The notes below the pieces were generated by a model. The model had not been told where the DNA came from, did not search any database, and saw nothing but the letters and a program-made list of their open reading frames with translations. 64,000 bases of DNA. Source: Prevotella sp. GTDB lineage: Bacteria > Bacteroidota > Bacteroidia > Bacteroidales > Bacteroidaceae. Below, piece after piece: positions 32,546 through 47,897 of this stretch. A program made the translations under genes and the position numbers. The stretch is taken from positions 23,504 through 87,503 of the forward strand of contig JBMNUV010000006.1 in assembly GCA_050946455.1 (NCBI GenBank). Reading direction: 5' to 3'. Within the stretch, counting starts at the first letter, position 1. The number at the start of each line of letters is the position of its first letter.

Positions 32546-33154
32546 TCACTCCTTGATTCCGTAGGTCACGTCATCCTCGTCCCATTTGTCCTTTATCTGA
32601 GCCGGTTCTGCTGGATAGCCGATGCAGATAACATTGAGGGGAATGAAGCGTTCCGAGAGGTGGAGTGCCTTGCGGATGCCGTCCACCTTTTTCTGAATTG
32701 GATAGGAACTGGTCCATACGGCTCCCAATCCCATGGCGTGAGCTGCCAACAAAATGTTCTCGCTCGCGCAGGAACAATCCTGTATCCAGAAGTCACGTCC
32801 GTCACCTTCCAGCATCTTCGTAGTGTCTCCACAGACGATAATGAACAGAGGCGTTTTCCGAATGTTGTCGGCATGGCGCTCGTTCGAGGCGGCATAGCGC
32901 TCGATGTCCTCCTTCTCGGAGAGTACCACGAAATGCCACGGACGACGGTCCATGGACGTAGGAGCCGACATACCTGCCCGCAACAACTTCTCTATCTTTT
33001 CCTGTTCCACGGGGCGCTGCTGGAACTTACGGATACTACTGCGCGTCATGATACTTTTTATCACTACGTCGGCTGTATCAATGCTCTGCGCCTTCACGCC
33101 TCCCACTGCCATCATAACGAGCAGGAGAGTGAGAATGATTCTTGTCTTTTCCAT
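32546..33154 (-). CDS. Nitroreductase family protein with signal peptide
   Basis: TRSSIRKF, APTSMDRRPWHF, QDCSCASENILLAAHAMGLGAVW, IGYP. Confidence 0.9.
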   Translation of the reverse strand: MEKTRIILTLLLVMMAVGGVKAQSIDTADVVIKSIMTRSSIRKFQQRPVEQEKIEKLLRAGMSAPTSMDRRPWHFVVLSEKEDIERYAASNERHADNIRKTPLFIIVCGDTTKMLEGDGRDFWIQDCSCASENILLAAHAMGLGAVWTSSYPIQKKVDGIRKALHLSERFIPLNVICIGYPAEPAQIKDKWDEDDVTYGIKE

Positions 33155-33258
33155 TATTTTCTATTATTGATGAGATGAATAAATTCTATCAATTAGATTA
33201 ACCCAATTCTATCGGAAAAATTGCACTATTCTGCTATTTTTGATTGGATGAAACGTAA

Positions 33259-33294
33259 AGGAGCGGGATGCCGCGAAAGCACTGTCCCGCTCCT
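33259..33294 (-). terminator. Terminator of the TonB receptor/lipoprotein operon
   Basis: AGGAGCGGGA...TCCCGCTCCT stem. Confidence 0.6.
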
Positions 33295-33302
33295 AATGGG
33301 TG

Positions 33303-34556
33303 TCACTTGATGATGCAGATGGACTTGAGCAGGTCGCTCTTTTCGAAGGTCATGAACGGAGTGGCGACTCCCGTCTCAGCGTTGATTTTGTAGATAGTGG
33401 GCGTTACATTGCTTGTAGCGGTGTCGCTTCCATTGTTGAAACTGGTGGCGGCGGCAATAGGCAGATAGTAATAGCCGTCGTAGCCATCGCCCCATCCGAA
33501 AGAAATCGTGGATGGGTCGGGCAGACCCGTGACCCACGTCAAACTCTGGTCGCTCATATCCACCACGGCGAGCTTGCCGGAGGCATCCATGTTACCGTAG
33601 GCTGTTGTGGAGAGATAGAACTCCAACAGAAACTTGTCACCGCTGATGTGGAATGCCTTGCGGAAACGGTAACCGCCCGACTTAGACAGGATGTCGAACT
33701 TATAGTTGGAGTCGAAAGCGGTCTCTCCCTTGTTGATGCGAAGCGCTCCCACCTTCCTGTTGTCCGAGCTATTGCCACTGAACACATAGACATTGCCGTT
33801 GTCGTCTGCACCGCTCATAGCATAACGCACGGAGCGCTGAGCACCAACAGAAGTGCCGATGCGGTTGTCGTAGATGACCTTCGTGATGTTCAGATTGTAA
33901 TCGCAAAAGGCAACGGCAGCGGAATCTCGGTTGGCGTAGGATAGCACCATTGCCACTTGGTTGTCGCCGCGGTCCACGATGTTTGCCACCGATGGATTGG
34001 TCTCGTCAATGGCATACTGGGGCAGCGCCAGCGAGAGGTTATTGCCCGAACCATCGGCACTGACCACCTCGCAGTAGGGATTACTGATTTGGGCGGCGTA
34101 GGAATAGGTGCCGAAGATGCCTGTATTGCCAAAATTAGAAACGAGTATCGGACTGGCAATTTCCTCTAACCGACCGTCAACGACGCGGTAGCTGCGCAGA
34201 CCCGCCTTCATGCTGCCGATACCCTGTGCCGACGCACCACGGGCATAGATGTAGCCCGTAAAGACGCCGGATGCGGGATTATAGCTGGTCTGCGTGAAAC
34301 TGTCGTAACTCTTGGTGCCATTGGCGCTGTCGGCATAGACGCTCTGTCCCGTTTTAGTAGCGTTCAGGTCTGAGAACACCTTCATAACCACACCACCGGT
34401 GAGGTCTGTTGTGGGGTCACCAGAAGTCACGATGAAGCTCACTTTTGAAGGATTCTCTATGTTACTGCCATTGTCGCCGTCGTCGCTGTCGGAGCAGGAT
34501 AAGAGGGCTGTGGAGCATGATAGCGCGAGAAGCGCCATAAGGAAATGTTTGTTCAT
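33303..34556 (-). CDS. DUF4374-like beta-propeller lipoprotein (second paralogue)
   Basis: Lipobox LLSC; shares D..G.VYVFS, GALRI..G...FD..Y, Y.FR+...+.G.KFLLE.Y and WVTGLP with the neighbouring DUF4374 protein. Start ATG 34556. Confidence 0.7.
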   Translation of the reverse strand: MNKHFLMALLALSCSTALLSCSDSDDGDNGSNIENPSKVSFIVTSGDPTTDLTGGVVMKVFSDLNATKTGQSVYADSANGTKSYDSFTQTSYNPASGVFTGYIYARGASAQGIGSMKAGLRSYRVVDGRLEEIASPILVSNFGNTGIFGTYSYAAQISNPYCEVVSADGSGNNLSLALPQYAIDETNPSVANIVDRGDNQVAMVLSYANRDSAAVAFCDYNLNITKVIYDNRIGTSVGAQRSVRYAMSGADDNGNVYVFSGNSSDNRKVGALRINKGETAFDSNYKFDILSKSGGYRFRKAFHISGDKFLLEFYLSTTAYGNMDASGKLAVVDMSDQSLTWVTGLPDPSTISFGWGDGYDGYYYLPIAAATSFNNGSDTATSNVTPTIYKINAETGVATPFMTFEKSDLLKSICIIK

Positions 34557-34608
34557 TGTTGTTCTATGATTTTGTATTATTGAATAATTGGATTTACTGT
34601 AGTTATTG

Positions 34609-34777
34609 AAGTTTCGCAAGTTTGCAACTTGCTCACTTCAAAGGAGTTAGGAGGAGTCAAAGGAGTTATAGGAGTTAAAGACAACAGTGCTGAAGGGTAT
34701 CAGAATCCTTCAATAGTAATGTCTTAACTCCTTTGACTCCTTTTAACTCCTTTGACTCCTCCATAAATGCGAAAGTT
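34609..34777. repeat. ~170-bp hairpin element (MITE-like), copy 1
   Basis: Ends AAGTTTCGCA / TGCGAAAGTT; arms of GGAGT(C/T)AAA and TTT(G/A)ACTCC units around GCTGAAGGGTATCAGAATCCTTC; near-identical copy at 54167-54337. Confidence 0.8.
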
Positions 34778-34850
34778 GAGTGTAGTTATTAATGTGTCTG
34801 CTGTTTGAGACGCACTCATTCGTAGGATTAAGATAGCCTTCACATCCCTA

Positions 34851-36176
34851 TTAATTCAGCTTTCCGATGGTTCTAATTTCATAGACACCCGTCAACGTGA
34901 TGCCTTTCGTCGCCTCACCTGTATCGGGATTCACGAGATAGATGGTAGCATCGGAGCCATACTGCGTGATAGGCAGGTAGATGACACCGTCTGCATAGCA
35001 GGGAACGCCTCCTGTCTCCACGCCGGAAGTGATGAGGTTGCGGGCAGGCAGACCAGTGACCCAAGTGAAGGACTTCTCTCCCATGTCAACAATGGCATAG
35101 CGGTGTCCTGCTGTAATGGTGGTGAGAGCACTGCCTTTCTCATCGTAGATTTCGAGCAGGAACTTGCTACCGTAGAGATACCACACCCGACGGAACTTAT
35201 ATCCGTCAGCGGGAGTCTCCAAATCATAGTAGTAGTCGGGGTCAAAACCCTCGGCTCCCGATTTGATGCGAAGCGCCCCTGCCTTGCGGGTAGTCGCGGT
35301 ATTGAAGGCATTGGAGAACACATAGACGGTGCCGTCATTGGTGCGGAACACTTCCTGAAGCACCTGCGAGCGGTATTGTCCTGCTGCGTAGCTCAATCGG
35401 TCGTCACGATAAATCTTCATCACGTTGAGGTCTTTGTCAAGCCGTGCCACCCAAACGCTGTCGGGATATCTCACCGTTCCGATGCTTGAGCCATCGCCTG
35501 TGCCGGTCTGATGGAAGTCCGACTCCACCATGGCAGAGAGGAAAGTACCGTCACCCATATCCACGATGCTGGAGAAGGTCACTTGCTCGCCATTGCCCGT
35601 CAGGTCTTCCGTCCAAATCGTCTTGGTATGGTCGAGAAGCACTCCTTTGTCGGTGATATTCCAGAAGGTGAACGTAGCACCGTCGTTACGGGTTCCGTCG
35701 GTGGAGACCTGTCCGGCGACGCTCGTCACAAGCTGATTATTGAAGAAGCCATAATTGGAATAACGTGCCTCAATGCGGAACTCTCCCAACTTGCTCAGTG
35801 GAGCATCATCGGATGTCCACCGCATTCCATAACCAATCCCCGCGTACTGCTGCTGATAAACCAGTCCGATGGCATCATGGTTCTGGAATACCCATGTGTA
35901 TTCCTGCTGGGGCAGTTCCAAGATGTTGTCTTTGATGTTTAGGTTACCGTCGGTCAAACTGTTGGTCTGCATGATGTATTCGGTTCCCGAAGCAGCCTTG
36001 ACGGCGATAAAATAGGGACCTTGCCCGTTTTTCACTGTTGTGGAAGTGCTGTCAATTTCGGTCATGTCGTTGTCGGCGGTATCACTGTCAGATGAGCAGG
36101 AAGCCAGTCCGAGGAACGACAGCAGCACCAAGAACACAGCCATAGTGGACTGTAAGTAAAATGTTGTTCGTTTCAT
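34851..36176 (-). CDS. DUF4374 domain lipoprotein (XusB-like)
   Basis: Lipobox LASC; YPDSVWVARLD, DDRLSYAAGQYRSQ, DGTVYVFS, AGALRIKSG..GFDPDYY; directly downstream of a TonB receptor. Confidence 0.8.
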   Translation of the reverse strand: MKRTTFYLQSTMAVFLVLLSFLGLASCSSDSDTADNDMTEIDSTSTTVKNGQGPYFIAVKAASGTEYIMQTNSLTDGNLNIKDNILELPQQEYTWVFQNHDAIGLVYQQQYAGIGYGMRWTSDDAPLSKLGEFRIEARYSNYGFFNNQLVTSVAGQVSTDGTRNDGATFTFWNITDKGVLLDHTKTIWTEDLTGNGEQVTFSSIVDMGDGTFLSAMVESDFHQTGTGDGSSIGTVRYPDSVWVARLDKDLNVMKIYRDDRLSYAAGQYRSQVLQEVFRTNDGTVYVFSNAFNTATTRKAGALRIKSGAEGFDPDYYYDLETPADGYKFRRVWYLYGSKFLLEIYDEKGSALTTITAGHRYAIVDMGEKSFTWVTGLPARNLITSGVETGGVPCYADGVIYLPITQYGSDATIYLVNPDTGEATKGITLTGVYEIRTIGKLN

Positions 36177-36211
36177 ATTGTATTTCGTCTTGATTAAATG
36201 GTTTCATAGAC

Positions 36212-38380
36212 TTATCGCTTGTAGAACACGTATCGGAACTTCAAGCTGAAGCTGCGCCCCGGCTTTTGCAGACTGTAGTTGTCGTAGAGCAGGGCATTTC
36301 CGATGTTGTTTGCCTCAAAAGCGATGTTATAGCGTCCGCCGAAAGTGTAGGTGATGGCGGCATCATGACTGATTTGTTCTGGGATATAAAGTTTTGCTCC
36401 CTCGCCCGACCATGACCTATAGAAACGGTGGACATAATTGAGGTGATAACTAAGGGTCAGTCGGTCCGACTTGGATGCCAAATGCTTGAACAGGAGTTGC
36501 GCATAGGCTCCGCCGAAGGCATAGGGCTGATTGGGCACGCGGTTGCCGTAGGTGACGCTCTTCGCTCCGATGAGGTTCAGCCGTTCGTCGTCGCGAAAGT
36601 TCTGCAGGGCATAGTTGGCATTGATGGAAAAGATGTCCTTATATGCATATCTGATTGCCACGTCGGCACCTAAACCGCGTACCTTACCGTGGTTGTCGCT
36701 CATGGCGCTACCGTTCTGAGCGATGGTGCGGATGATGTAGTCGCGGATGTAGCGGAAGTAAGGGGTCACTTCCACGCCCACCGTGTGCCGCTCGTCCCAG
36801 TTGTGCTGCCAACCCAAGTTGAGGTTGATATTGTCGCTCCTTTCTGGCTTCAACGTCGTGTTACCCTGTTCGTAGTCGCCATCGCCGAATAGCTCCAAGT
36901 CGGTGGGCAGACGCGACGTGCGCTCATAGGAGAGTTTCAGTTGCAGGTCGTTGTTGAACAACAGCCACGTGGCAACGGCTCCCCATCCGAGTGCCTGTCT
37001 GCTGCGTTGCTGTTCCTCATAGACGGCGCGACCCGATGATGCCGTATTCACCGGTCCCCGCACATGAGAGGAAAAATATTTAATGAAAGCCGTGGCATTC
37101 CACGTGGAGACCGGAGCCCACTGATAGGACAGTCCCAACGTATTCTTTCCGTTGACGCGCCGCATGAAAGTGGCTTCAGAACTTTGAACGGAGTTGGCTG
37201 CATTGTTCGTGGTATGGCGCGAATAACGGCTGTAAGTGTCGTTGAGGGCGAAGGTGTGACCCGGCGCAAGATTGTAGGTAAGGTTCACGACGTTGGAGAA
37301 GGTGCGCCCCGTAAACTCGGCAAGGGTGGCGATACCCTCCCCTTGGTAGTCCTTGAGCTTGTATTCTCCCGTCCAAGTGTAGGTGCGGCTTGCGGTATCC
37401 ACGTTGTTCGTCGTGACGAAGTCCATGCGTGCAGACCAACGGAAGTTCAGCCTTGGCAGGAGGTTGCGCTTCTCATACATCACGCTGGGCGAGAGGGTAT
37501 GAGAGGTGCGGTACTTCTTTCCGAACACAATCTTCATGAGGTTGGCGTTCTGGATTTGCGCGTATTCGTGCGAATAGGTGAAGCCAAAAATCAGTTTGTC
37601 CGCCCATGGTTGGTTCACGATTCCCGCCTGCGCGATGACTGCTTCGTTGTGATAGCGGTCGTGGAACCGACGGAACCATCGTTCATCGTTGGAGAGGGCA
37701 TTAGTGGCGAGGTTTGTCCACTGGGTTTTCACCTTGTAGTCGTTGTCCGAATAGTTTTGATAGGCAATGAGGCGCACCGTCCAACCTTTGTCTCCCGTCC
37801 ATCCCAATGATAAATTAGACCGATGGGTATTAAACGAGCCATAGCTGTAGGAGGCATCAATATAGGTATGGGGAGAGTGGTCTGTCACGATATTCACGGC
37901 TCCTCCCAAGGCATCGGAACCGAGACTGACCGGCACTACTCCTTTGTAAACCGCTACGCTGTTGGCGAGGGTGACGGGAATATTGTTCAACGAGAAACTG
38001 GTGGACGATTCATCCATGGGAATACCATCGATGAAAATGCGGAGTTGCTTGCCGGAGAATCCATTGATATGGATGCTGTTGCCGGAGCCAAGTCCGCCGT
38101 CACTTCGCACCTTGACACCCGAAATACGGTTGAGGACATCTGCCAAATTGAGGGTAGTGTTGCGCAGTCGTCGCGTGTCGATAGCGACAGCATTGTAGGC
38201 GGAGCCATTGACACGCTGGATAATGTTTCCGCGCACCACCACTTCTTTCAGCCTATGTGTGCGGTCAAGGCTACTGTGATGTTGTGCAGAGTCGTTGGAT
38301 ACCTGCCCGTGCATGGTGGTGGCTGAGAGCAACAAGGCGACGAGTACCCCATTGAATTTCAAATAATTGCTTCTTATCAT
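36212..38380 (-). CDS. TonB-dependent receptor, iron/siderophore type (XusA-like; not SusC)
   Basis: LADVLNRISGVKVRSDGGLGS, FIDGIPM, VYKGVVPVSLGSDALGGAVNIVT, LKPERSDN, QKPGRSFSLKFRYVF. Confidence 0.88.
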   Translation of the reverse strand: MIRSNYLKFNGVLVALLLSATTMHGQVSNDSAQHHSSLDRTHRLKEVVVRGNIIQRVNGSAYNAVAIDTRRLRNTTLNLADVLNRISGVKVRSDGGLGSGNSIHINGFSGKQLRIFIDGIPMDESSTSFSLNNIPVTLANSVAVYKGVVPVSLGSDALGGAVNIVTDHSPHTYIDASYSYGSFNTHRSNLSLGWTGDKGWTVRLIAYQNYSDNDYKVKTQWTNLATNALSNDERWFRRFHDRYHNEAVIAQAGIVNQPWADKLIFGFTYSHEYAQIQNANLMKIVFGKKYRTSHTLSPSVMYEKRNLLPRLNFRWSARMDFVTTNNVDTASRTYTWTGEYKLKDYQGEGIATLAEFTGRTFSNVVNLTYNLAPGHTFALNDTYSRYSRHTTNNAANSVQSSEATFMRRVNGKNTLGLSYQWAPVSTWNATAFIKYFSSHVRGPVNTASSGRAVYEEQQRSRQALGWGAVATWLLFNNDLQLKLSYERTSRLPTDLELFGDGDYEQGNTTLKPERSDNINLNLGWQHNWDERHTVGVEVTPYFRYIRDYIIRTIAQNGSAMSDNHGKVRGLGADVAIRYAYKDIFSINANYALQNFRDDERLNLIGAKSVTYGNRVPNQPYAFGGAYAQLLFKHLASKSDRLTLSYHLNYVHRFYRSWSGEGAKLYIPEQISHDAAITYTFGGRYNIAFEANNIGNALLYDNYSLQKPGRSFSLKFRYVFYKR

Positions 38381-38578
38381 AAACTATTATTGCCTTTACG
38401 GGTAATAATCGTGGTACCATAAGGAGCTTGTACGTCGGGCACTTAAACTGTCAACCGTTGCCGTGCAATGACTGTTTCTCTCTTATCCGTTTCTTTTCCC
38501 CAATTCCTGCTTCCGGCGTAATTTGTCGGAATTTGAGATGGCATGTGTTTGGTTATTCCATACTTCAGGAATCGGGTG

Positions 38579-38586
38579 CAAAATTA
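38579..38586 (-). promoter_or_regulatory. -7 box (TAATTTTG) for the TonB receptor operon
   Basis: TAnnTTTG match about 200 nt upstream of ATG 38380. Confidence 0.55.
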
Positions 38587-38676
38587 ATCCATTTCCACAA
38601 CGCATGCAATACCTAAAAATAACGAGATTTCCATGCTATTTTGAGGAGCGTCACAGTATATTAGGATAAAGCAACA

Positions 38677-39326
38677 GAACAATATCCGTCGTGTAGTCGC
38701 ATCTCACGGAGGTCCCGTCGCTCCGCGCGGGACGACATCCGACAATACAATTCAAAAGTAATAAAACGTTCAGATAATCATTATTACATATAATATATAG
38801 GGTCAACTTTGGCAGTCGTCCCGCGCGGAGCGACATCCGACAACACAATTCAAAAGTAATAAAACGTTCAGATAATCATTATTACATATAATATATAGGG
38901 TCAACTTTGGTCGTCGTCCCGCGCGGAGCGACGGGACCTCCATGCTTCGCGGGACGACATCCGTCAATAACCAACATCTTACTCCGCTCGTAGTTCTCGC
39001 GCTCCGCGCGGGAACAATATCCATCCCGTAGCCGCAACTCACGGAGGTCTCGCGCTCCGCGCGGGACGACATCCGACAACACAATTCAAAAGTAATAAAA
39101 CGTTCAGATAATCATTATTACATATAATATATAGGGTCAACTTTGGCAGTCGTCCCGCGCGGAGCGACGGGACCTCCATGCTTCGCGGGACGACATCCGT
39201 CAATACAAATAAATACTATTCCAAATTAATAAAGACCACGGGCATCCCTTATTACCTATAATAATATTGGGTCAACTTTGGCAGTCGTCCCGCGCGGAGC
39301 GACGGGACCTCCATGCTTCGCGGGAC
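38677..39326. repeat. REP/REPIN-like array: GC-rich palindromic units alternating with a 78-nt AT-rich spacer
   Basis: 46-nt unit GTCGTCCCGCG...CGCGGGACGAC at 38913 and 39149 (43 nt at 39284); reverse or partial units at about 38708, 38815, 38997 and 39043; near-identical 78-nt spacers at 38737, 38835 and 39071, plus a diverged 89-nt spacer at 39195. Confidence 0.85.
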
Positions 39327-39354
39327 AATTTTCGGCAAATAAAACTTCAACTCT

Positions 39355-39448
39355 GGATTGAGCGACAATTGTCGACATGCATGTCGGCAATTGTCAACGA
39401 GTTTGTCGGCAATTGTCAACGAGTTTGTCGACAATTGTCGCTCAATCC
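39355..39448. repeat. 94-bp element with perfect 23-bp terminal inverted repeats and 22-nt internal units
   Basis: GGATTGAGCGACAATTGTCGACA / TGTCGACAATTGTCGCTCAATCC; internal TGTCGGCAATTGTCAACGAGTT units; same family at 54045-54136 in the opposite orientation. Confidence 0.8.
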
Positions 39449-39705
39449 CAAACAAATAGTTTTTGAGTTGATAATAGCAGTTCCCGAGCCCTTCTTTCCT
39501 ACTGTATTATCTTTAAGATAATACAGATAGGGTGATTCATATTTTAGAGCAAAGTCACAAACATTCATAGCCAAAGAATGATTCAAACAACGAACAAGAC
39601 TATTAATCACAGCATCCAAAGCGAACGATAACCACCTACATAATTTGCCCAATCAGAAAAGTGGGTAAAGACGTTTGGCATAAGTGGCTCAATCGGGAAA
39701 GATGG

Positions 39706-39713
39706 TACCTTTG
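39706..39713 (+). promoter_or_regulatory. -7 box (TACCTTTG) of the PepSY-TM gene
   Basis: TAnnTTTG match 24 nt before ATG 39737. Confidence 0.6.
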
Positions 39714-39736
39714 CACAGAATTAAATAGATTAATCA

Positions 39737-40483
39737 ATGAGAAAGTTTTGTTTACGTATTCATCGTTGGCTCGCCATCCCCTTGGGCTTGTTTATCTCGC
39801 TCATCTGTTTTTCTGGTGCCATCATGGTGTTTCAGGATGAGATTGCCAACTACATTCTTGGAGTTGAATATTCCCACGACGTTCCATTCTTCATGGCGAT
39901 AAGACAGTTACACCGCTTCCTGTTTGATGTCCCTGCTGATTTACGCAGTGGCTATACGGTGGGACGCGTCATCGTACTGCTGTCCGCTATCGGCATGTCG
40001 CTCATCCTTCTTTCGGGCATCGTCATTTGGTGGCCCCGAAACAAGAAGATGCTCCGCAACCGCCTGACCGTTCATTTCAACAAGGGCTGGCGGCGATTGG
40101 TCTATGACTCCCATGTATCACTCGGCATCTATGCTTTTGCTTTCCTGTTGCTCATGTCGCTCACGGGTCCTGTGTTCTCCGCATGGAAACCCTATCGGCA
40201 AGCAGCACTGGTCGTCACCCAAAGACAAGAGAACCCGTTACAAGGAAAAGCTCGGCAAGCTGAAGTTGCCACGCGTGAGAATCCGCATGTGGATTTCAAC
40301 CATCACACAGGCGTCAACCCGACACAGTTTTTCTTCATGAGTTGGCATACCGGACGCTGGGGCGGGCTCCTTACCCGCATTATCTATTGTTTGGCAGCCA
40401 TCATCGGTGGACTGATGCCTTGGAGCGGATATTATATCTGGTGGAAAAAGAGAAAGGCAAAGAAGTTAGGAATTAGGAGATAG
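39737..40483 (+). CDS. PepSY-associated TM-helix inner-membrane protein (XusC-like)
   Basis: RIHRWLAIPLG..I...CFSGA, QLHRFL, SGIVIWWP, YDSHVSLGIY, WHTGRWGG, SGYYIWW; the conserved His residues are typical of PepSY_TM reductase-like proteins. Confidence 0.85.
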   Translation: MRKFCLRIHRWLAIPLGLFISLICFSGAIMVFQDEIANYILGVEYSHDVPFFMAIRQLHRFLFDVPADLRSGYTVGRVIVLLSAIGMSLILLSGIVIWWPRNKKMLRNRLTVHFNKGWRRLVYDSHVSLGIYAFAFLLLMSLTGPVFSAWKPYRQAALVVTQRQENPLQGKARQAEVATRENPHVDFNHHTGVNPTQFFFMSWHTGRWGGLLTRIIYCLAAIIGGLMPWSGYYIWWKKRKAKKLGIRR

Positions 40484-40672
40484 GAGCAATTTGAGTTAGG
40501 AGTTAGTAGATAGGAGTTAGGAGTTCTGCGCCCCCACTATACTTACCGAACCTACTACACCTACCGTACTCCTTCTGATAGTGCGCAGCTAATTATGCAT
40601 TGTGCATTATGCATTATGCATTATAAAAGGCGCGCAGCGAATTATGAATTATGAATTGTGAATTATGAATTA
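40464..40672. repeat. Modular heptamer-array element overlapping the PepSY gene stop
   Basis: (GGAGTTA/GGAGATA)n - CTGCGCC - ACCTACTAC module - GCGCAGC - (CATTATG)n - GCGCGCAGC - (AATTATG)n. Confidence 0.85.
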
Positions 40673-40729
40673 AGCGGAGCGTTTATCAGCATCAAGTTAT
40701 AAAAAAATTGCTAAAAGTAAGCCTATGTG

Positions 40730-40762
40730 TTTGGCTTAAATTAAACATTTTGCGTATTTTTG
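40730..40762 (+). promoter_or_regulatory. Bacteroidota promoter of the tannase gene
   Basis: TTTG (40730) + 21 nt + TATTTTTG (40755). Confidence 0.65.
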
Positions 40763-40790
40763 AGTCACAATTTGAAATAACAAATCAGTA

Positions 40791-42278
40791 ATGAGAAAGA
40801 TACTATTATTAGCCGGTCTGACAATAGCCTTAAGCACGATGGCAAGACCGAAGCAACAGGCAACACTGCAATTCGATGCCAGTAAGGGACAGTCGGAAAC
40901 GCTGGAAATGCCCAATGGCAAGAAAGTGAGCTACACAGCTTACACGGGTCTATATTATGTGACAAACGTGGAGGATTCCACCTATCAGTATCTGAACGTC
41001 TTTGTGCCAAATGGCGCCACGCAGCAGACTCCCATCTTCCTGCGCACCTATGTAGGAGGCTATATGGCATCGGCTGCCGGAATGCCACAAGCCGGTGATG
41101 CGTCGGGACGCGCCTTGGAGGAAGGCTATGTGCTGGTGATTCCCGGTACGCGCGGTCGCAACTCCACTATTAAGAAAGGTAAGAAAACCATCTATACGGG
41201 TCGCGCGCCCAAAGCTATCCTCGACCTCAAGGCTGCCATCCGCTATCTGCGCCATTTCGACGAGCAGATGCCGGGCGATGCCGAACGCATCATTACCGAC
41301 GGAACCAGTGCGGGCGGCGCCATGTCGGCGTTGATGGGAGCCACGGGCAACAATCCTGCCTATGAGCCTTATCTGAAGGCGATGGGAGCAGCCGAAGAGC
41401 GCGACGATGTATTCGCGAGCGTATGCTTCTGTCCCATCACCGACTTGGAACATGCCGATATGGCATACGAATGGCTCTATGGCAATACCAATAGCAGACA
41501 GGCTAACGATGAGGAGCATCGACAAGTAACGAATGAACTATCTGCAATGTTTCCAGAATACATCAACAGCCTACAACTGAAAACTTCTGATGGAACCCTG
41601 CTCACAGGCGATAACTATCTCGACTTCATCAAACAGGAGATTATTCGTGCCGCGCAGATTGCCAAGAATGCCGGTGCCGACATTCCCGACTCGCTCGGCT
41701 TCAAGTTCTCCGAGGAAGCAAGTTTCGGAGCACCGCCCATCAATGGTGGAGTCAACAATTCTAAGTCCACCCAACCGACGACTGGCGGCATGATGATGCA
41801 CCGCGCGAAGCGTCAAGGTGAATACATTGTCGACCTTGATATGCCCACTTATCTGAACTATGTGGCAAATAAGACCGCACTGAAAACCGCTCCCGCCTTC
41901 GATGCCAAGGGCGTGGCAGGTGACGAGGCAACTGGCGAGAACGAGGAGTTTGGAGATGAAAAAGGTTCAAGCGTCAACTTCACCGACTACAGTGCGGCAA
42001 AGAACGGTACTGCGGTAAGCGATGAGGTGAAGCGCTGGCTGCCCCTGATGAATCCCATGTCGCAGATTGGAAAGAGCAACGTCACCGTTGCTCCCCATTG
42101 GTATATCCGCCATGGTGCCATTGACAGGGACACCTCCTTCCCTATCCCGCTCAATCTGGCTCTGAAACTTCAGAACAGCGGTAAGGATGTCAATTATCTC
42201 TTGGCTTGGAACCGTCCCCACAGCGGAGACTATTCGCTTGACGAGCTTTTCAGTTGGATTGCCTCCATTGTGAAATAA
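40791..42278 (+). CDS. Secreted tannase (tannin acyl hydrolase, TanB/TanA-type)
   Basis: Collinear with Lactiplantibacillus TanB motifs: YLNVFVP, DLKAAIRY, nucleophile GTSAGG, CPITDLEHADMAYEW, K.APAFD, EN..FGD, HW.IRHG..DRDTS, PHSGDY; signal peptide present. Confidence 0.88.
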   Translation: MRKILLLAGLTIALSTMARPKQQATLQFDASKGQSETLEMPNGKKVSYTAYTGLYYVTNVEDSTYQYLNVFVPNGATQQTPIFLRTYVGGYMASAAGMPQAGDASGRALEEGYVLVIPGTRGRNSTIKKGKKTIYTGRAPKAILDLKAAIRYLRHFDEQMPGDAERIITDGTSAGGAMSALMGATGNNPAYEPYLKAMGAAEERDDVFASVCFCPITDLEHADMAYEWLYGNTNSRQANDEEHRQVTNELSAMFPEYINSLQLKTSDGTLLTGDNYLDFIKQEIIRAAQIAKNAGADIPDSLGFKFSEEASFGAPPINGGVNNSKSTQPTTGGMMMHRAKRQGEYIVDLDMPTYLNYVANKTALKTAPAFDAKGVAGDEATGENEEFGDEKGSSVNFTDYSAAKNGTAVSDEVKRWLPLMNPMSQIGKSNVTVAPHWYIRHGAIDRDTSFPIPLNLALKLQNSGKDVNYLLAWNRPHSGDYSLDELFSWIASIVK

Positions 42279-42429
42279 CAGATTTCCATTGCGGGAAACT
42301 TATTCGAGGGAAAGAACAAGAACGTTTGAGGAAACCTCGGATTGACGTTTGACGTAAACGGTCGACACACAATGTTCGCTATCTTTGCAACAGATTAAGA
42401 TAATTGAACAGGATGATAGTCGAACAAGA

Positions 42430-42580
42430 ATGGAATACGTATTACTGAACGATAATGCCATGATGCCGCAACATGGCTATGGCATTCATCTCATTTCTCC
42501 CGACGAGTGTGGGCGTTGTTCGAGCGACGCTCTGAAGGTGGCAACAATATCAACTGCCATCGCAACCCGAAACTTGTCAA
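42430..42580 (+). pseudogene. Degraded 5' fragment of an aldo/keto reductase gene
   Basis: MEYVLLNDNAMMPQHGYGIHLISPDECGRCSSDALKV..ISTA resembles the AKR N-terminus (MEY..LNNG..MP.LGYG....PDEC...V.DAL..GYR.IDTA); similarity then collapses. A TATCTTTG box lies at 42380. Confidence 0.55.
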
Positions 42581-42671
42581 ACGGTTCATGTCACGATGAA
42601 GAAAGTGACATCAACCTCTATTCGCCCCGGGTGCACTTCCATCCGGGGCTGCTATATCTAAATTGAAGAAG

Positions 42672-43961
42672 ATGATGAAAAGAATCCTAACTTTATTGAT
42701 AATTTTTAGTTGGGTTTGTCTCGGCTCATGGGCAAGTCCCAACGGCACACTGATGGCTGGGGCGGCACAGGGAGACATCACGCCCCCTGGCTCGCTCTTT
42801 CCCTTCCAAGCCCAGCATGAGTCGCATCCCTACACAGGCATCCACGACAGTCTTTTCGTGCGGGCTTTGGTGATGGAAGCCGATGGTCAGCGTGCCGTAC
42901 TAATGGAGTTGGACGAAGTAGCGATTCCCGAAGCCGACTCTCTGCGACAGTTGGTAGCACGTGCGGCAAATACTACAGCCAATCATGTGATGATGACCGT
43001 CAGCCACACGCATTCCACACTCCATCCCAGCCGAAGTGATGCCAGACTTCAATCTGACATCGACAAGATTATCTCCAACAGCGTAAAGGCAGTCCGTGAG
43101 GCTGCATCACATTTGGAACCCGTGTCGGTTGCCTTTGCCCGTACCAAGGCATACGTCAATGTGAATAATGGCGAGGTGGTGCAGAGCAAGGGGCAGTATT
43201 ACGATGATGCATTCTCCGATAAGACACTCGACGTAGTACGATTCCTGCGCCGCGACAGTTCAGTGCTTGCCCTGATAGTCAACTACGCAACACACGCCGA
43301 AGTGATGTTCCGCAGTGTGACGCGCGACAATGGATATGAAATCACAGGCGACTTGCCGGGACGCGTGGCACAGTTGCTCGAGAGTCAGTATCCAGGCAGT
43401 GTGGTACTCACCACTCCAAGTGCGGAGGCTGACCAACAACCGCTTTTCACTTCCCGACAGCGCACCGAGACGCAAGGCACTGTGGACCAAGGTATTGGCG
43501 GTTGGAACGTGATTGACGTTCAAGCGCGCCGCATCACCGATGCTGTAAATGTGGCTGTCGGGAAGATGGGCGCGGGCGATGCGAAGGTTCAACTACAGAT
43601 TGACAATACTGAAGCAGTGGTTCCCGGAGCTCACCGTCACCGTATGCGCCATTCGGGCAGAATGGTGGACGAGGATGCTCCCGATGTGCACATTCCCCTC
43701 ATGCAAATTCGTTTGGGCGACATTACCTTCCGGGGCGTTGGTGCCGACATTGCCTCAGAGATGGGCGTGACATTCAGGGATGCTTCCCCTGCTAAACACA
43801 CGATGCTCATCAGTTGCATCAATAATTCCGCAGGCTATGTGCTTTCTGACGAAACCTACCGTCACTACACCCACGGCGTAATGGCTTCACGGATAAAACC
43901 GGGATATGCCCAACAGGCAATCAGCAGTGCTTTTCAGGAGATAGACAAATCCAATCAATAA
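42672..43961 (+). CDS. Neutral/alkaline ceramidase N-terminal-domain-like hydrolase, exported
   Basis: AGAAQGDITPP, GIHDSLFVRALV, SHTHS, NYATHA, GDLPG; signal peptide. Confidence 0.72.
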   Translation: MMKRILTLLIIFSWVCLGSWASPNGTLMAGAAQGDITPPGSLFPFQAQHESHPYTGIHDSLFVRALVMEADGQRAVLMELDEVAIPEADSLRQLVARAANTTANHVMMTVSHTHSTLHPSRSDARLQSDIDKIISNSVKAVREAASHLEPVSVAFARTKAYVNVNNGEVVQSKGQYYDDAFSDKTLDVVRFLRRDSSVLALIVNYATHAEVMFRSVTRDNGYEITGDLPGRVAQLLESQYPGSVVLTTPSAEADQQPLFTSRQRTETQGTVDQGIGGWNVIDVQARRITDAVNVAVGKMGAGDAKVQLQIDNTEAVVPGAHRHRMRHSGRMVDEDAPDVHIPLMQIRLGDITFRGVGADIASEMGVTFRDASPAKHTMLISCINNSAGYVLSDETYRHYTHGVMASRIKPGYAQQAISSAFQEIDKSNQ

Positions 43962-43966
43962 AGACA

Positions 43967-45292
43967 ATGAAACAATTCCATATCTTGAAACTAATCTTAG
44001 GATGTTGTATGCTTTGCCATACTCAAGTGGGTATGGCTCAGAAATACAAGACACAATATCTGAGTATCGGCAGACAGTCGGCTGTTCTTTATCAACCGGA
44101 ACAGCCTTCGGAGAAGTCTTCCATTGGCATAGTGGTGATGCACTCCAATGAGGACTATTTAGGTTTTCTTGCCAACTCCGAGCTTTCCCAACGTGGCTAT
44201 ACGGTTTTGGCAACCCTTCCTGCCGAAGGTGATATGATGGACGCGAAGTTGCTCAGCGTTAAGGCATGTGTGGACTATCTGCGGTCAATGCCTAACATCA
44301 AGAAAGTGTTGTTGCTCGGTCACTCTGGCGGTGCCACGGTAATGACGGCATACCAACTCATTGCCGAAAAAGGCACGGGCGTGTTAAAGGACAAACTATT
44401 CAACGCCTACTCCCGCGACCTCAGTCATTTGTCGAAGGTTGATGGTATTATCCTCCTCGATGCCAATTATGGCAACAGCGTAATGCGCCTGCTGAGTCTC
44501 GACCCCAACATCAAGGGACGCGGACAAGGCAACGGCAATCCGCACCGCCTCTCACTCACAGATACTTCCAAGGGCTATGCGGAGAATGGAGCTACCCACT
44601 ACACGAACGAATTCCGTCGGCAGTACCTTTCGGCACAGCGCCAACGTCTCAATGACTTGATGTCAGAAGCCCAAACACGTCTCGACAGTATCCAGTCAGG
44701 ACACGGACAGTTCAGCGACGACGAGCCTTTCGTGGTGGCTGGAGCCAACCAAATGCGGTTCTACAACCGAGTGTTCCCGCAGGACCTTCATCTTTTAGCC
44801 CACACGAAGGGCACATACACATTGCTTCATGGCGATGGGACAGTTACGAAAGAGGTGGTGCATTCTGTCAGGGCTCCCCAGCAAGGCGAAGTCAAGACAA
44901 CGAGTCTCGACGCTGCCATGAACACTACCGTAAAGGGCTTCCTCAGTGCATGTGCCATCAAAGTGAATCCCGACTTCGACATCACTGCAACGGGGATTGA
45001 GGGCATTGACTGGACTTCCAACATCAACAATCCTATTGGCAATTCCACGGGCATCACTGTACCTATTCTAATGATGGGCATGACGGGCAGTTGGGAATAT
45101 TTAGCTTCGGAGATGATTTACAACGCTTGTCCTTCCACGGACAAGAGCATTGCCTTTGTCGAGGGGGCTTCCCACATGTTTGAGCCGGACAAGGCGGCAG
45201 AGGAATATAATCACAAAGACTATGGCGACACGGTAAAGGCGCTCTTCGACTATGTTGACCAGTGGCTGAGCAAGGAAGGACGATTCATGTAG
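43967..45292 (+). CDS. Exported alpha/beta-fold hydrolase
   Basis: Nucleophile elbow LLGHSGG, C-terminal EGASHMF; signal peptide. Confidence 0.78.
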   Translation: MKQFHILKLILGCCMLCHTQVGMAQKYKTQYLSIGRQSAVLYQPEQPSEKSSIGIVVMHSNEDYLGFLANSELSQRGYTVLATLPAEGDMMDAKLLSVKACVDYLRSMPNIKKVLLLGHSGGATVMTAYQLIAEKGTGVLKDKLFNAYSRDLSHLSKVDGIILLDANYGNSVMRLLSLDPNIKGRGQGNGNPHRLSLTDTSKGYAENGATHYTNEFRRQYLSAQRQRLNDLMSEAQTRLDSIQSGHGQFSDDEPFVVAGANQMRFYNRVFPQDLHLLAHTKGTYTLLHGDGTVTKEVVHSVRAPQQGEVKTTSLDAAMNTTVKGFLSACAIKVNPDFDITATGIEGIDWTSNINNPIGNSTGITVPILMMGMTGSWEYLASEMIYNACPSTDKSIAFVEGASHMFEPDKAAEEYNHKDYGDTVKALFDYVDQWLSKEGRFM

Positions 45293-45318
45293 AAGATAAT
45301 ATTCAAAACATAAATATA

Positions 45319-45954
45319 ATGATGATGAGACGAAGAAAATTAATCATTTTAGCAATGACAGCATTATTCCTGATGGGCGGCACCTCTTGTGGTCGCTCCT
45401 CCAATGGTCAGAGTACAGAACAGTTGGGAGACTCAACTGAGCAAGCAGTTTACAACACCATACTTACGAGAAGCAGCATCCGAAAGTATGAAAACAAAGC
45501 AGTGGAGAAAGAGAAAATAGAGAAACTTCTCCGCGCTGGCATGGCGGCTCCATCGGCTGTGGACAGACGTCCTTGGCATTTGGTCGTCGTCACAGACAAG
45601 TCAAAGTTGGAAGCCATTGCACAAGTTACTCCCAATGCACGTAGCGCAAAGGATGCTCCGCTTGCCATCGTGGTTTGCGGTGACATGACAAAAGCGTTAG
45701 AAGGCGAAGGTCGCGACTTCTGGATACAGGACTGCTCGGCAATGAGCGAAAACATCCTGCTCGAAGCCCATGCCTTAGGACTTGGCGCAGTATGGACTGG
45801 CACCTATCCCTCACAGGAGCGGTGTGAAGCCGTGCGCAAGGTGTTAGGTTTGTCACAAGACCTGATTCCCTTGAACACCATCGTCATCGGCTATCCTCAA
45901 GAAGAAGGACAACCCAAAGACAAATGGAATCCCGACGATGTGACCTATATGTGA
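45319..45954 (+). CDS. Nitroreductase family lipoprotein (paralogue of 32546-33154)
   Basis: Lipobox GTSC; TRSSIRKY, APSAVDRRPWHL, RDFWIQDCS, LGLGAVW, KDKW. Confidence 0.9.
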   Translation: MMMRRRKLIILAMTALFLMGGTSCGRSSNGQSTEQLGDSTEQAVYNTILTRSSIRKYENKAVEKEKIEKLLRAGMAAPSAVDRRPWHLVVVTDKSKLEAIAQVTPNARSAKDAPLAIVVCGDMTKALEGEGRDFWIQDCSAMSENILLEAHALGLGAVWTGTYPSQERCEAVRKVLGLSQDLIPLNTIVIGYPQEEGQPKDKWNPDDVTYM

Positions 45955-46235: not shown

Positions 46236-47897
46236 CTACGCTTCAATAGCCCTTATCCGCTCGTCAAACTGTTTGGCGCCGCCCTTCTCTCCAAAGATTT
46301 TTTGCAGTAGATGGGCACGCAGATTGCTAATCACTTGCGGCGTGGTCAAAAGCAGCACGGCAATCTCTGATGGGATAAAACGCAAACGGATAAGCTCGCA
46401 TACAGCCTGCTCGCGCTGCGTGAGTCCATTGCGGGCATTGATTGTTGGGAGAAAATGAGGCAGTCGCTCATCAAAGAGAACATTGAGCTGTTGCCAATAG
46501 GAATCATCTACGCGCTGTCCTTTCGCTGCAAGGGAATGGAAACGGAACACGAGTTCAGAATTGAGTAGTTCTTGGTCGTCCTTCCAACCTTTGGGACTGA
46601 CGGCGTCCTCTTGATATTCTGCAATGCGCCGTTGCAATTCTTCCACCTCTTGCTCTTTGGCAGCCAATAGTGTACGCTGGGCGTCACCACGGCTTCGCAA
46701 CTGGTCAAGTTCTTCGTTGACATCGCGATAATGTTGCAAGTCGGCATTATAGCGGCTGTTGAGTTGTTCCAGTTCTTTCTTCAAACGTTTATTGCGATGC
46801 TTCTGCCAATAGATAAACACGAGGAACACCACCACAAGCACAGCCACACCCACGGCAATCCTGCCGATGAGACTCCGTGTCTGACTCTGCCGCCATTCTC
46901 GGTCAATATCGTTTTGTGCCATGGTGAGCTGGACGGGATTGAGCGACTGGCGCCACTCGTATTGTCTAACGAGTTCTTTAAAATAGAAATTGGCACGTTG
47001 GTTATTCTTTGCCCTATTGAAATACTCCACCAATTGCTTCAAGGCGTGCACGCGAGTCTCAAACTCGTCTGCCTCTATTGCCTGAAAATAATAGGAAACC
47101 GCACCTTCGAAGTTACCTCTGCTCCACTCCACGTCGCCAATTATCCGTGCCGCACGATAAACCAGTCCCGTCTCAGCCACCTTCTTGGCATAGCTCATTG
47201 ACTTGGCGGTGTCGCCACGCTGATAATAGTATTCTGCCAATGCGCTGAGCGCCTGAGCCTTCATATCACGTGATGAGATAAGGGGAATGCTGCGCTGAAT
47301 GTAGAGGTAGTAACGGGCAGTGTCGCCCATTCGCCCATAGGCGCGTCCCAACTGCATCATCGTTTCGGCATAGCGTTCCTGCCCACCGATTTTCTGAGCT
47401 ACTTGGAGCGCCGATTTCCAATGTTCTATCGATAGTTCGTTGCATCCCCACTCGCCATTGGCTTGTCCCAATGCCACGTGTACCTTATATAATAGGTATA
47501 GGTCATCTTGTTCTGTGGCAAGTCTTTCCGCCTGTTTCAAGAGTTTCATTCCTTTCATAGCTCCCACATGTCCTTTGCCCTGCAGATACACGGCTTGGGC
47601 ATAGTGCTTTCTGTCGCCGTGTCGCTCAAAGTAGTCAGCGCTTGCCACGATGGCGGAATCGCTGACGGTATTGAGATTCTCCTTGTCAAGTGCTTCCTGA
47701 TAGAGCAGCGTATAAAGCGCACTATCAGCGGCAGTGAACAACAAACCGGTTGCGTCGAGCGAGTCGAGCACTACAAAGGCACGATAGGGTTGCGACTCAA
47801 CGTAGCGCTCCACTTCCAACAAAGATGGAGAAGCCTGCGGAGTTCTTTGACATCCGCAGACAATAATAAGAGAGAGTATGAATAGGAATTTCTTCAT
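46236..47897 (-). CDS. TPR-repeat lipoprotein-like sensor with TM helix and C-terminal LuxR-type HTH
   Basis: IIVCGC N-terminus, helical TPR-like repeats, TM GRIAVGVAVLVVVFLVFIYW, LTQREQAVCELIRLRFIPSEIAVLL. Confidence 0.7.
   Translation of the reverse strand: MKKFLFILSLIIVCGCQRTPQASPSLLEVERYVESQPYRAFVVLDSLDATGLLFTAADSALYTLLYQEALDKENLNTVSDSAIVASADYFERHGDRKHYAQAVYLQGKGHVGAMKGMKLLKQAERLATEQDDLYLLYKVHVALGQANGEWGCNELSIEHWKSALQVAQKIGGQERYAETMMQLGRAYGRMGDTARYYLYIQRSIPLISSRDMKAQALSALAEYYYQRGDTAKSMSYAKKVAETGLVYRAARIIGDVEWSRGNFEGAVSYYFQAIEADEFETRVHALKQLVEYFNRAKNNQRANFYFKELVRQYEWRQSLNPVQLTMAQNDIDREWRQSQTRSLIGRIAVGVAVLVVVFLVFIYWQKHRNKRLKKELEQLNSRYNADLQHYRDVNEELDQLRSRGDAQRTLLAAKEQEVEELQRRIAEYQEDAVSPKGWKDDQELLNSELVFRFHSLAAKGQRVDDSYWQQLNVLFDERLPHFLPTINARNGLTQREQAVCELIRLRFIPSEIAVLLLTTPQVISNLRAHLLQKIFGEKGGAKQFDERIRAIEA

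Follow-up and report, generated by a model that had tools for sequence, protein, structure and literature searches.

The window analysed here, a stretch of 64,000 nucleotides from a Prevotella sp. genome (GenBank assembly GCA_050946455.1, contig JBMNUV010000006.1, positions 23,504 to 87,503 of the forward strand), contains two separately inherited modules that lie side by side in this gut or rumen Prevotellaceae bacterium. One is a cluster for secreted tannin esterase activity, and the other is a variant of the Xus operon, which is known from Bacteroides thetaiotaomicron as the xenosiderophore system XusABC. On balance, we lean towards the view that these represent two autonomous modules placed back to back, each of which is built around an exported flavoprotein of the nitroreductase family (NTR1 and NTR2, respectively). 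Module A would then extend over positions 32546-38586 on the reverse strand and comprise a promoter, a leader, a TonB-dependent receptor, two lipoproteins and NTR1, while module B would occupy positions 39737-45954 on the forward strand (Table 1). A first-pass annotation, made from the letters of the sequence, had listed the genes from the second lipoprotein gene of module A up to NTR2, and each of these was retrieved intact and in place by an open reading frame map and profile searches.

Three sets of sequences were used for comparison. A sample of 301 genomes of the family served to count the carriers of tannase, DUF4374 and nitroreductase (NTR) genes, and the neighbourhoods of the 80 closest tannase homologues were surveyed in species-representative genomes by clustering of neighbouring genes within a reach of 10 kb. 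Variant Xus loci were collected both from genomes belonging to the same genus or family and from loci recovered through their tannase gene, yielding nine loci (genomes G312, G375, G302, G250 and G192, Hallella mizrahii, Ihuprevotella massiliensis, Prevotella sp. UBA2725 and the window), which were set against 20 canonical Xus loci sampled in the same family. Many of the loci originate from metagenome-assembled genomes, homology in flanking regions was called by tblastn with queries derived from the window, and all statements on the function of the nitroreductases are inferences.

The variant operon is distinguished by its third type of component. NTR1, located directly after DUF4374_b and just beyond the left border of the previously annotated region, is the product of the fourth gene of the operon, and an NTR1-type gene follows the two DUF4374 genes in each variant locus with a visible 3' end (8/8). 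The seven Xus-linked nitroreductases of other genomes, encoded after the second DUF4374 gene in L041, L043, L044, L077, L110, L127 and L128, are 55-62% identical to NTR1 as opposed to 46-50% to NTR2, NTR1 and NTR2 themselves being paralogues with 52% identity. All nine variant loci contain two DUF4374 genes and no PepSY gene inside the operon, whereas the canonical loci contain a single DUF4374 gene each, which is followed by a long PepSY gene on the same strand in 19 of 20 cases; a nitroreductase, tannase or esterase-MBL gene was found in none of these 20 loci. NTR1 holds the operon position that is occupied by the PepSY reductase XusC in canonical loci. The combination of receptor, DUF4374 lipoprotein and PepSY protein had previously been taken to represent the XusABC composition, which is misleading for this locus, given that the PepSY gene is syntenic with the tannase gene and that the third component of the operon itself is a nitroreductase. 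The PepSY protein was rejected as a XusC candidate based on synteny and length (248 aa, divergently encoded at a distance of 1.35 kb, as compared to approximately 450 aa for canonical XusC). In genomes G250 and G192, an exported FMN_bind protein of 136 aa, which contains the flavinylation motif DGVTGAT(F/Y)SS, is encoded directly 3' of NTR1; the genome to which the window belongs specifies a copy that is 43% identical to this protein and located away from the operon (C2:35591-35983).

The remaining proteins of module A agree with the earlier description of a non-SusC receptor and two DUF4374-type lipoproteins, which is upheld by their domains, by the match of the receptor to XusA and by the XusB fold. 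The only strong relative of the receptor with a solved structure is XusA of B. thetaiotaomicron (9gbc_A; E 1e-154, residues 40-718 versus 107-793), while a model of the MxcH type scores it at 402 bits, being below the cut-off of that model. Its identity to the receptors of other variant loci (57-64%) exceeds that to the receptors of the 20 canonical loci (38-41%). The AlphaFold2 (AF2) model of DUF4374_a is a beta-propeller (predicted local distance difference test score, pLDDT, of 88.6), which is assigned to the XusB-family fold because all of its 20 highest-ranking PDB matches are XusB structures; template modelling (TM) scores to BvXusB and BfXusB amount to 0.69-0.72, the best superposition being obtained with the hook-less BfXusB (root mean square deviation 3.6-4.0). 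When aligned to XusB of B. thetaiotaomicron (BtXusB), DUF4374_a lacks the nine residues of the hook tip (aligned N120-E128), retains R167 and S254, and carries an alanine in place of R255. In BtXusB the hook tip contacts ferric enterobactin, and a hook rule has been proposed for the ligand class of XusB proteins (PMC13142918). By this rule the absence of the hook tip from the DUF4374_a sequence would argue against an enterobactin-type binding mode. DUF4374_b, the start codon of which was corrected to the ATG at 34556 instead of the TTG at 34619, is more remote from BtXusB (E 6e-15) and retains Arg167 of loop L2, its hook region being unalignable. Both lipoproteins contain an acidic stretch after the lipobox (SSDSD in DUF4374_a and SDSDD in DUF4374_b) which resembles an export motif. 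As a separate observation, BtXusB (PDB 9GBC chain B) is circularly permuted relative to DUF4374_a and the Pfam model, residues 164-438 of DUF4374_a corresponding to chain positions 40-346 and residues 46-154 to chain positions 347-458, which fits a published remark that the hook is located in blade 2 in BtXusB and in blade 4 in its homologues.

A further hallmark of the variant operon is a 5' leader of approximately 120-190 nt, which is located between the TAnnTTTG box and the start codon of the receptor gene in all nine loci. Two blocks of this leader, AACGGATAAG(N)GAGAAACAGTCATTGC and CTCCTTATGGTACCAC, are near-invariant in these loci, which represent several genera, and can pair, thereby suggesting that the leader adopts a defined structure; with regard to covariation, the outer helix is invariant and double changes occur at three inner pairs only. 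The block pair occurs once in its own genome, and the blocks are absent from the 20 canonical Xus loci, while the leader is likewise absent upstream of PepSY, tannase and NTR2. No Rfam family matches the leader, the two microRNA hits obtained being spurious and located on hairpins resembling repetitive extragenic palindromic (REP) elements. The leader is a candidate new cis-regulatory RNA.

Module B is centred on the tannase, which matches model NF041556 almost from end to end (residues 26-490 versus profile positions 1-462 of 463). Alignment to 6YQ4 and 4J0G shows that the motifs GTSAGG, HGAIDRDTS, PHSGDY, KTAPAFD and ENEEFGD are kept, in accordance with the earlier claim that the catalytic and galloyl-binding positions are conserved. 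The protein is a true subtype B tannase, with retention of the catalytic Ser/Asp/His triad and of the predicted gallate-binding Lys, Glu and Asp. A promoter-like box, TATTTTTG, is located at 40754-40761, this TAnnTTTG box being conserved in L150. The PepSY protein encoded upstream matches its profile only at positions 108-295 plus the first transmembrane helix (TM1) and is without periplasmic PepSY domains, and its match to FoxB, representing the transmembrane ferric reductases (7ABW; 382 aa), is weak, although IHRW in TM1 and WHTGRWGG in TM4 align with LHRY and IHGGR, respectively. Its gene is preceded by a promoter box, TACCTTTG, which is also conserved in L150. Downstream of the tannase gene, the ceramidase-like protein has no Pfam match of its own, and the two hydrolase genes form a widely conserved two-gene unit (their homologue lists share many contigs) that is independent of tannase. 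In other Prevotella (L151-L154), this pair adjoins SusR-like TPR regulators and a protein of 715-764 aa of unknown type, and a regulator of the same class is encoded convergently to NTR2 in the window. The PDB matches of the alpha/beta hydrolase model are generic (PA2218, YcjY and cinnamoyl, chlorogenic and feruloyl esterases, TM scores 0.36-0.43), and lipases as well as a fungal siderophore hydrolase also reach approximately 0.4, making a substrate call impossible.

The composition of module B in relatives indicates where the PepSY gene belongs. The closest relatives are the metagenomic contigs L147, L149 and L150 (77-83% nucleotide identity), of which L147 and L150 present the order AraC, PepSY (249 aa), tannase, AraC/ExsA_N, Flavin_Reduct, ceramidase-like protein and hydrolase, while L149 begins at AraC/ExsA_N, being without PepSY and tannase on the contig, and adds genes for an aldo-keto reductase and NTR2 to those downstream. 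In all three contigs the module is closed by a convergent MRJP-FMN_red gene, and neither a receptor nor a DUF4374 gene was found within 10 kb. A short PepSY gene is also present beside tannase or NTR2 without a receptor in L050 (PepSY followed by NTR2 after a 4-bp gap), L084 (PepSY followed by tannase) and L126. The short PepSY gene thus belongs, as judged by synteny, to the tannase module. Relative to these contigs the window's genome is rearranged, with the AraC/Flavin_Reduct pair located on contig C1 and the MRJP-FMN_red gene, which shares 80-83% nucleotide identity with the gene beside hydrolase/NTR2 in L147, L149 and L150 and is also found in L104, located to the left of the Xus operon. 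The gap between PepSY and tannase measures 66 bp in L147 and L150, where the equivalent of the repeat spacer is approximately 40 nt, as opposed to 307 bp in the window, so that about 230 nt of the spacer is, by this comparison, a lineage-specific insertion. The caveat raised by the first-pass annotation, namely that the tannase gene has its own promoter box and is separated from PepSY by a repeat, therefore stands as far as both elements are concerned, the repeat being mostly this insertion.

Association with nitroreductases is a recurrent property of the tannases surveyed. An NTR2-type gene adjoins the tannase gene in 11 of the 80 loci, and in-frame fusions of tannase and nitroreductase, consisting of a signal peptide and the two domains joined by a short linker, occur in L055 (10001-12094) and L057 (448-2544). 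Fusions of this type (667-717 aa) come from many samples and make up at least 20 protein clusters when grouped at 90% identity (P0241-P0259, P0264). Flavin_Reduct domains are further fusion partners of this nitroreductase family, in very many clusters, as are peroxidase domains of the GSHPx/AhpC type in approximately 10, and the family is carried by 57 of the 301 genomes sampled. In P. veroralis and H. shahii an operon with gaps of 4-61 bp specifies a NapH-like protein (FMN_bind plus Fer4_5), NTR2, tannase and a MATE protein, and among 20 family NTR contexts that had not been selected through tannase, a NapH-like or FMN_bind neighbour is present in seven and an exported Flavin_Reduct protein in four. 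Other tannase contexts (n = 80) involve MFS transporters (11 loci), esterase-MBL genes (15 loci), and, in approximately 15 loci, AraC-regulated islands with aldo-keto reductases, FMN_red, cupin/CMD proteins and other TonB receptors. NapH-like and PepSY-like proteins have been described as interchangeable, modular transmembrane electron conduits for extracytosolic reductases, in a study that does not mention nitroreductases (PMC8238504). In the genome of the window (G000), an ApbE gene is present (C1:18693-19520), whereas NapH-like genes are absent and PepSY_TM is encoded only once. This leaves the PepSY protein between the modules as the sole evident source of electrons for NTR1 and NTR2, and we infer that it feeds both.

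The linkage between tannase and the variant Xus operon extends beyond the window. Variant Xus genes lie within 10 kb of the tannase gene in four of the 80 loci besides that of the window, and the arrangement, which might have been unique to this genome, is thus present in five species. In H. mizrahii (L074) the modules are divergent with esterase-MBL genes between them; in I. massiliensis the receptor, two DUF4374 proteins, NTR1 and tannase are encoded on one strand, with a gap of 357 bp before the tannase gene; and in Prevotella sp. UBA2725 an NTR2-tannase pair is convergent with receptor, two DUF4374, NTR1 and esterase-MBL genes. P. veroralis contains the leader and a receptor stub of 154 aa, followed by a homologue of the window's alpha/beta hydrolase, Flavin_Reduct, NapH-like, NTR2 and tannase genes. 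In genome G302 it is the tannase that has decayed, leaving a remnant of 152 aa (L044 7676-8134, reverse strand). Here the signal peptide runs in frame straight into the C-terminal 126 residues of the enzyme (KSAPAFD onward), and the neighbours of the remnant are a variant Xus operon that is still intact and a PDDEXK_3 gene with long inverted repeats on either side; the close relative H. mizrahii has the counterpart of this tannase in full length. Decay of one module beside an intact partner is thus seen in both directions. Adjacency in five species compares to an expectation of less than one under independence, with P ranging from 1e-8 to 2e-2 depending on the assumptions made.

All five linked tannases fall within one clade of 18 members (Shimodaira-Hasegawa-like approximate likelihood ratio test, SH-aLRT, support 97), with none among the other 60 (Fisher P = 4e-4), and therefore the cases are not independent and the underlying events may be few. 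In the sample of 301 genomes, tannase is present in 12 and DUF4374 in 62, both occurring together only in the genome of the window, which corresponds to one observed co-occurrence versus 2.5 expected and hence no enrichment. No Xus parts were found at the 12 other tannase loci of the 11 other family genomes, so that the link came to light among the closest tannase homologues only and not in the family sample, while the variant-Xus genomes G250 and G192 contain no tannase at all. A survey of tannase neighbourhoods, as proposed by the first-pass annotation in support of a tannase-linked iron-scavenging system, has thus borne out recurrence of the link in four further species, and has at the same time confined it to a single clade with unlinked nearest relatives. 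The picture that emerges from these loci is that of a facultative association, either long-lived or repeatedly re-formed, in which each module may decay beside the other. Co-location of the modules hints at a shared role in the handling of iron bound to plant phenolics; a coupling of iron and tannin use is plausible but unproven.

No cis-element common to modules A and B was found. Both repeat arrays listed in Table 1 lie within the 1.35 kb that separate the PepSY gene from the divergently oriented receptor gene, and the larger of these arrays resembles REP elements or miniature inverted-repeat transposable elements (MITEs) and is made up of GC-rich hairpin arms of 32 nt, in both orientations, around AT-rich spacers of 78 nt. 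Boxes resembling binding sites of Fur, AGATAATCATTATTA, sit within these repeated spacers, matches to the 7-1-7 consensus being located in the array at 38772, 38870 and 39106, with one more inside NTR1; these matches are barely above shuffled sequences (9 versus 3.2, with 2 of 100 shuffles scoring equally high). A scan with the same consensus found no Fur-like box upstream of the tannase gene, and a scan for promoters and terminators found no terminator between PepSY and tannase. The sigma-70 consensus is uninformative for Bacteroidota; promoter boxes were identified by visual comparison with the TAnnTTTG consensus. Separately, an intergenic element of approximately 180 nt, with copies that are 84-91% identical, was observed in L149 (5373-5560 and 6895-7081), where it flanks genes of the tannase module, and on contigs C50, C62 and C76 of the window's genome. 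This repeat is likely to be a MITE and may contribute to rearrangements in this region.

Table 1. Position of features in the window, and of corresponding features in other loci where a locus is named.
Feature	Position	Strand	Characteristics
Exported MRJP/yellow propeller fused to FMN_red flavodoxin-like domain	28829-30541	-	Pfam
NTR1, exported nitroreductase-family flavoprotein	32546-33154	-	PF00881, E 1.5e-26; type I signal peptide
DUF4374_b, second, more diverged XusB-like surface lipoprotein	33303-34556	-	PF14298, 92 bits, C-terminal half only; lipobox LLSC
DUF4374_a, XusB-like surface lipoprotein	34851-36176	-	PF14298, 201 bits; lipobox LASC, followed by acidic stretch
XusA-like TonB-dependent receptor, non-SusC	36212-38380	-	722 aa; Plug and barrel, no CarboxypepD_reg domain
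Promoter box TAATTTTG (complement of 38579-38586) and conserved, putatively structured 5' leader of variant xusA operon	38381-38586	-	
Leader in other variant loci	L041 9240-9376; L044 9432-9593; L074 4952-5113; L077 3801-3984; L078 686-872; L110 15906-16025; L127 12571-12741; L128 2251-2430		
REP/MITE-like repeat array between divergent modules	38677-39326		repeat families D1, D2, D6; inverted pairs I2-I5
Four GACAATTGTC-type palindromes forming a 44-nt inverted repeat	39355-39448		repeat families D7, I1
Short PepSY_TM protein	39737-40483	+	PF03929, 155 bits; 248 aa, four transmembrane helices
Low-complexity repeat spacer (AGGAGTTAGGAG, ATTATGCATT, GAATTATGAATT)	40484-40720		repeat family D5
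Secreted subtype-B tannase (predicted galloyl-ester hydrolase)	40791-42278	+	NF041556, 427 bits (cut-off 300); signal peptide
Exported neutral-ceramidase-like hydrolase	42672-43961	+	nearly all homologues carry PF04734
Exported alpha/beta hydrolase	43967-45292	+	GHSGG; large insert domain; AF2 pLDDT 89.4
NTR2, lipoprotein nitroreductase	45319-45954	+	PF00881; lipobox GTSC
SusR-like TPR regulator (TPR plus DUF6377/SusR_C)	46236-47897	-	Pfam; convergent with NTR2
Small FMN_bind protein genes	L127 6498-6908; L128 8146-8463	- (L127); + (L128)	directly after NTR1

According to the reading that we slightly favour, that of two autonomous modules, the receptor and lipoproteins of module A would import an iron chelate, unlikely to be enterobactin itself given the absence of the hook tip, and NTR1 would most likely free the iron reductively in the periplasm, this being the step that XusC performs in canonical systems. 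Module B would be an exported module for plant-phenolic esters, in which the tannase cleaves galloyl esters and NTR2 most likely reduces those phenolic products that are either oxidised (quinones) or bound to Fe(III), the single PepSY_TM protein supplying both nitroreductases in this genome. The side-by-side position would then reflect the related redox chemistry of catechol and galloyl compounds, and use of Fe-gallate may follow from it as a facultative rather than obligate trait. Several points weigh against such a reading. Adjacency well above chance, which persists in divergent, convergent and same-strand layouts, suggests selection for linkage, and in I. massiliensis the tannase gene directly follows NTR1 on the same strand. 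We know of no nitroreductase-family enzyme that acts as a periplasmic ferric-chelate reductase. The loading of FMN into a protein that binds it non-covalently is left unexplained if that protein is exported through the Sec pathway, and the fusions of nitroreductase and peroxidase domains point to a defence against oxidative stress instead of to either of the proposed substrates.

A less probable reading, though the strongest of the rivals, is that of a single integrated system, in which the tannase would free Fe-galloyl complexes or cleave ester-linked chelators, the receptor and lipoproteins would import the products, and PepSY together with the nitroreductases would release the iron. This scheme is chemically reasonable and would account for the adjacency in five species and one remnant, well over chance, for the paralogous exported nitroreductases that both modules have in common, for the position of the genome's only PepSY_TM gene between them, and for the one-strand layout of I. 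massiliensis as well as that of UBA2725, with esterase-MBL after NTR1 and a convergent NTR2-tannase pair. Yet the linked cases all belong to one tannase clade (0/60 outside), the nearest relatives are without the adjacency, variant Xus operons exist without tannase (G250 and G192) just as 11 tannase genomes exist without DUF4374, and loss of one module next to an intact other is seen for both. Shared regulation is likewise not apparent, since the leader of module A is absent from module B, no Fur-like box precedes the tannase gene, and the tannase module of relatives is flanked by AraC regulators, tannases being found in detoxification islands with AraC, aldo-keto reductase and FMN_red genes as well. 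With respect to cleavage of chelators, the catechols of enterobactin-type trilactones are amide-linked and the ester joins serine to serine, unlike a galloyl ester. Precedents for parts of this scheme consist of an esterase in the Xus operon of Parabacteroides distasonis (BDI_3403; PMC13142918), the use of polyphenols as xenosiderophores by Akkermansia muciniphila (PMC12552655) and the transport of plant catechols by TonB-dependent transporters of Pseudomonas aeruginosa (PMC9426570).

Two further explanations appear improbable to a similar degree. If iron were not involved, the receptor and DUF4374 lipoproteins would import free phenolics such as gallate or catechols, for nutrition or detoxification, and NTR1 would reduce quinones; a distant DUF4374/TonB-dependent transporter pair of Echinicola indeed serves the use of lysine or tyrosine as a nitrogen source, not iron (bioRxiv 10.1101/2023.03.17.533168), DUF4374_a is without the enterobactin-binding hook tip, esterases flank three of the variant loci, and the leader of the operon could sense a small molecule. 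However, the receptor's sole strong solved relative is XusA, the lipoprotein fold matches XusB only, all characterised members bind ferric siderophores (PMC13142918), Arg167 of L2 is conserved, and no cytoplasmic genes for gallate or catechol catabolism are located nearby. The adjacency could, alternatively, be an accident of a rearrangement hot spot, with the nitroreductases providing a general periplasmic defence against oxidative and quinone stress and having no substrate link to their neighbours. The region is full of REP/MITE-like repeats and heavily rearranged as compared to close relatives (the AraC/Flavin_Reduct pair moved to C1 and MRJP-FMN_red displaced), and the NTR family, with its many contexts in 57 of 301 genomes, includes GSHPx/AhpC fusions. 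Such an accident is difficult to reconcile with the strict split by which NTR1-type proteins occur only in Xus operons (7/7) and NTR2-type proteins with tannases, with the existence of in-frame tannase-nitroreductase fusions, and with the presence of NTR1 at the XusC position in every variant locus. Beyond these readings, it may be speculated, with considerable doubt, that exported nitroreductase-fold flavoproteins fed by PepSY or NapH-like conduits form a class of periplasmic reductases that has so far gone unrecognised, acting on ferric complexes of catecholate or galloyl compounds or on their quinones. In Prevotellaceae, NTR1 would then have replaced XusC in a Xus variant with two lipoproteins, while NTR2, at times fused to the tannase, would work with this secreted enzyme, both modules together turning iron-sequestering tannins into a source of iron.

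XusABC of B. thetaiotaomicron was reportedly described as a xenosiderophore system by Zhu et al. in 2020. The variant operon resembles XusABC (BT2065-BT2063; 9GBC, 9GCZ; PMC13142918) in that genes for a receptor, a surface lipoprotein with the seven-bladed propeller fold of XusB/DUF4374 and a probable reductive step in the periplasm are located on one strand, but it differs in the presence of two diverged lipoproteins instead of one, in the absence of the hook tip, in having an exported nitroreductase instead of the PepSY protein XusC as third component, and in the conserved leader, for which canonical loci have no counterpart; the short PepSY gene close by is divergent and, in relatives, accompanies the tannase. 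The tannase shares with the subtype B enzymes TanB of L. plantarum (4J0C) and F. nucleatum (6YQ4) an equivalog-level score, the catalytic triad and the gallate-binding Lys, Glu and Asp; unlike these, it is exported by a Gram-negative host, and members of its clade are encoded beside, or fused to, an exported nitroreductase and accompanied by a membrane electron conduit. The NapH-like/PepSY-like systems (Meheust et al. 2021, PMC8238504) likewise combine a conduit gene with an adjacent exported redox enzyme and with ApbE and an FMN_bind protein in the genome, whereas the partner here is a nitroreductase-family flavoprotein tied to a siderophore-type receptor or a tannase. BDI_3403 of P. distasonis is a periplasmic esterase with a Xus-type locus, for which release of iron by ligand hydrolysis has been proposed (PMC13142918), yet it is part of a canonical operon with PepSY, while the esterases described here flank the variant operon, have promoter-like boxes of their own and are often absent. 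The concept of dietary catechol or galloyl compounds as carriers of iron, taken up by siderophore-type transporters, would be shared with A. muciniphila (PMC12552655) and with PiuA/PirA of P. aeruginosa (PMC9426570), but neither involves a tannase, DUF4374 lipoproteins or an exported nitroreductase. In the papers searched, no description was found linking tannase with siderophore uptake, nor of an NTR-containing Xus variant, of tannase-nitroreductase fusions or of a tannase-nitroreductase-conduit context.

Microbes of the gut and rumen are deprived of iron by tannins, and little is known about how tannin-tolerant Bacteroidota cope with this. If the link between the two modules is true, it would tie the acquisition of iron to the hydrolysis of polyphenols in Prevotellaceae that are dominant in the rumen, gut and mouth, and the recent idea that polyphenols act as xenosiderophores would gain a defined set of genes. 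Regardless of this link, a variant of the Xus system is defined, in which the place of the PepSY reductase is taken by an exported nitroreductase and which is accompanied by a conserved, unannotated candidate leader RNA, together with a module of tannase, nitroreductase and electron conduit that includes natural fusion proteins. Both units provide a first plausible role for a widespread family of exported nitroreductases, carried by 57 of the 301 family genomes.

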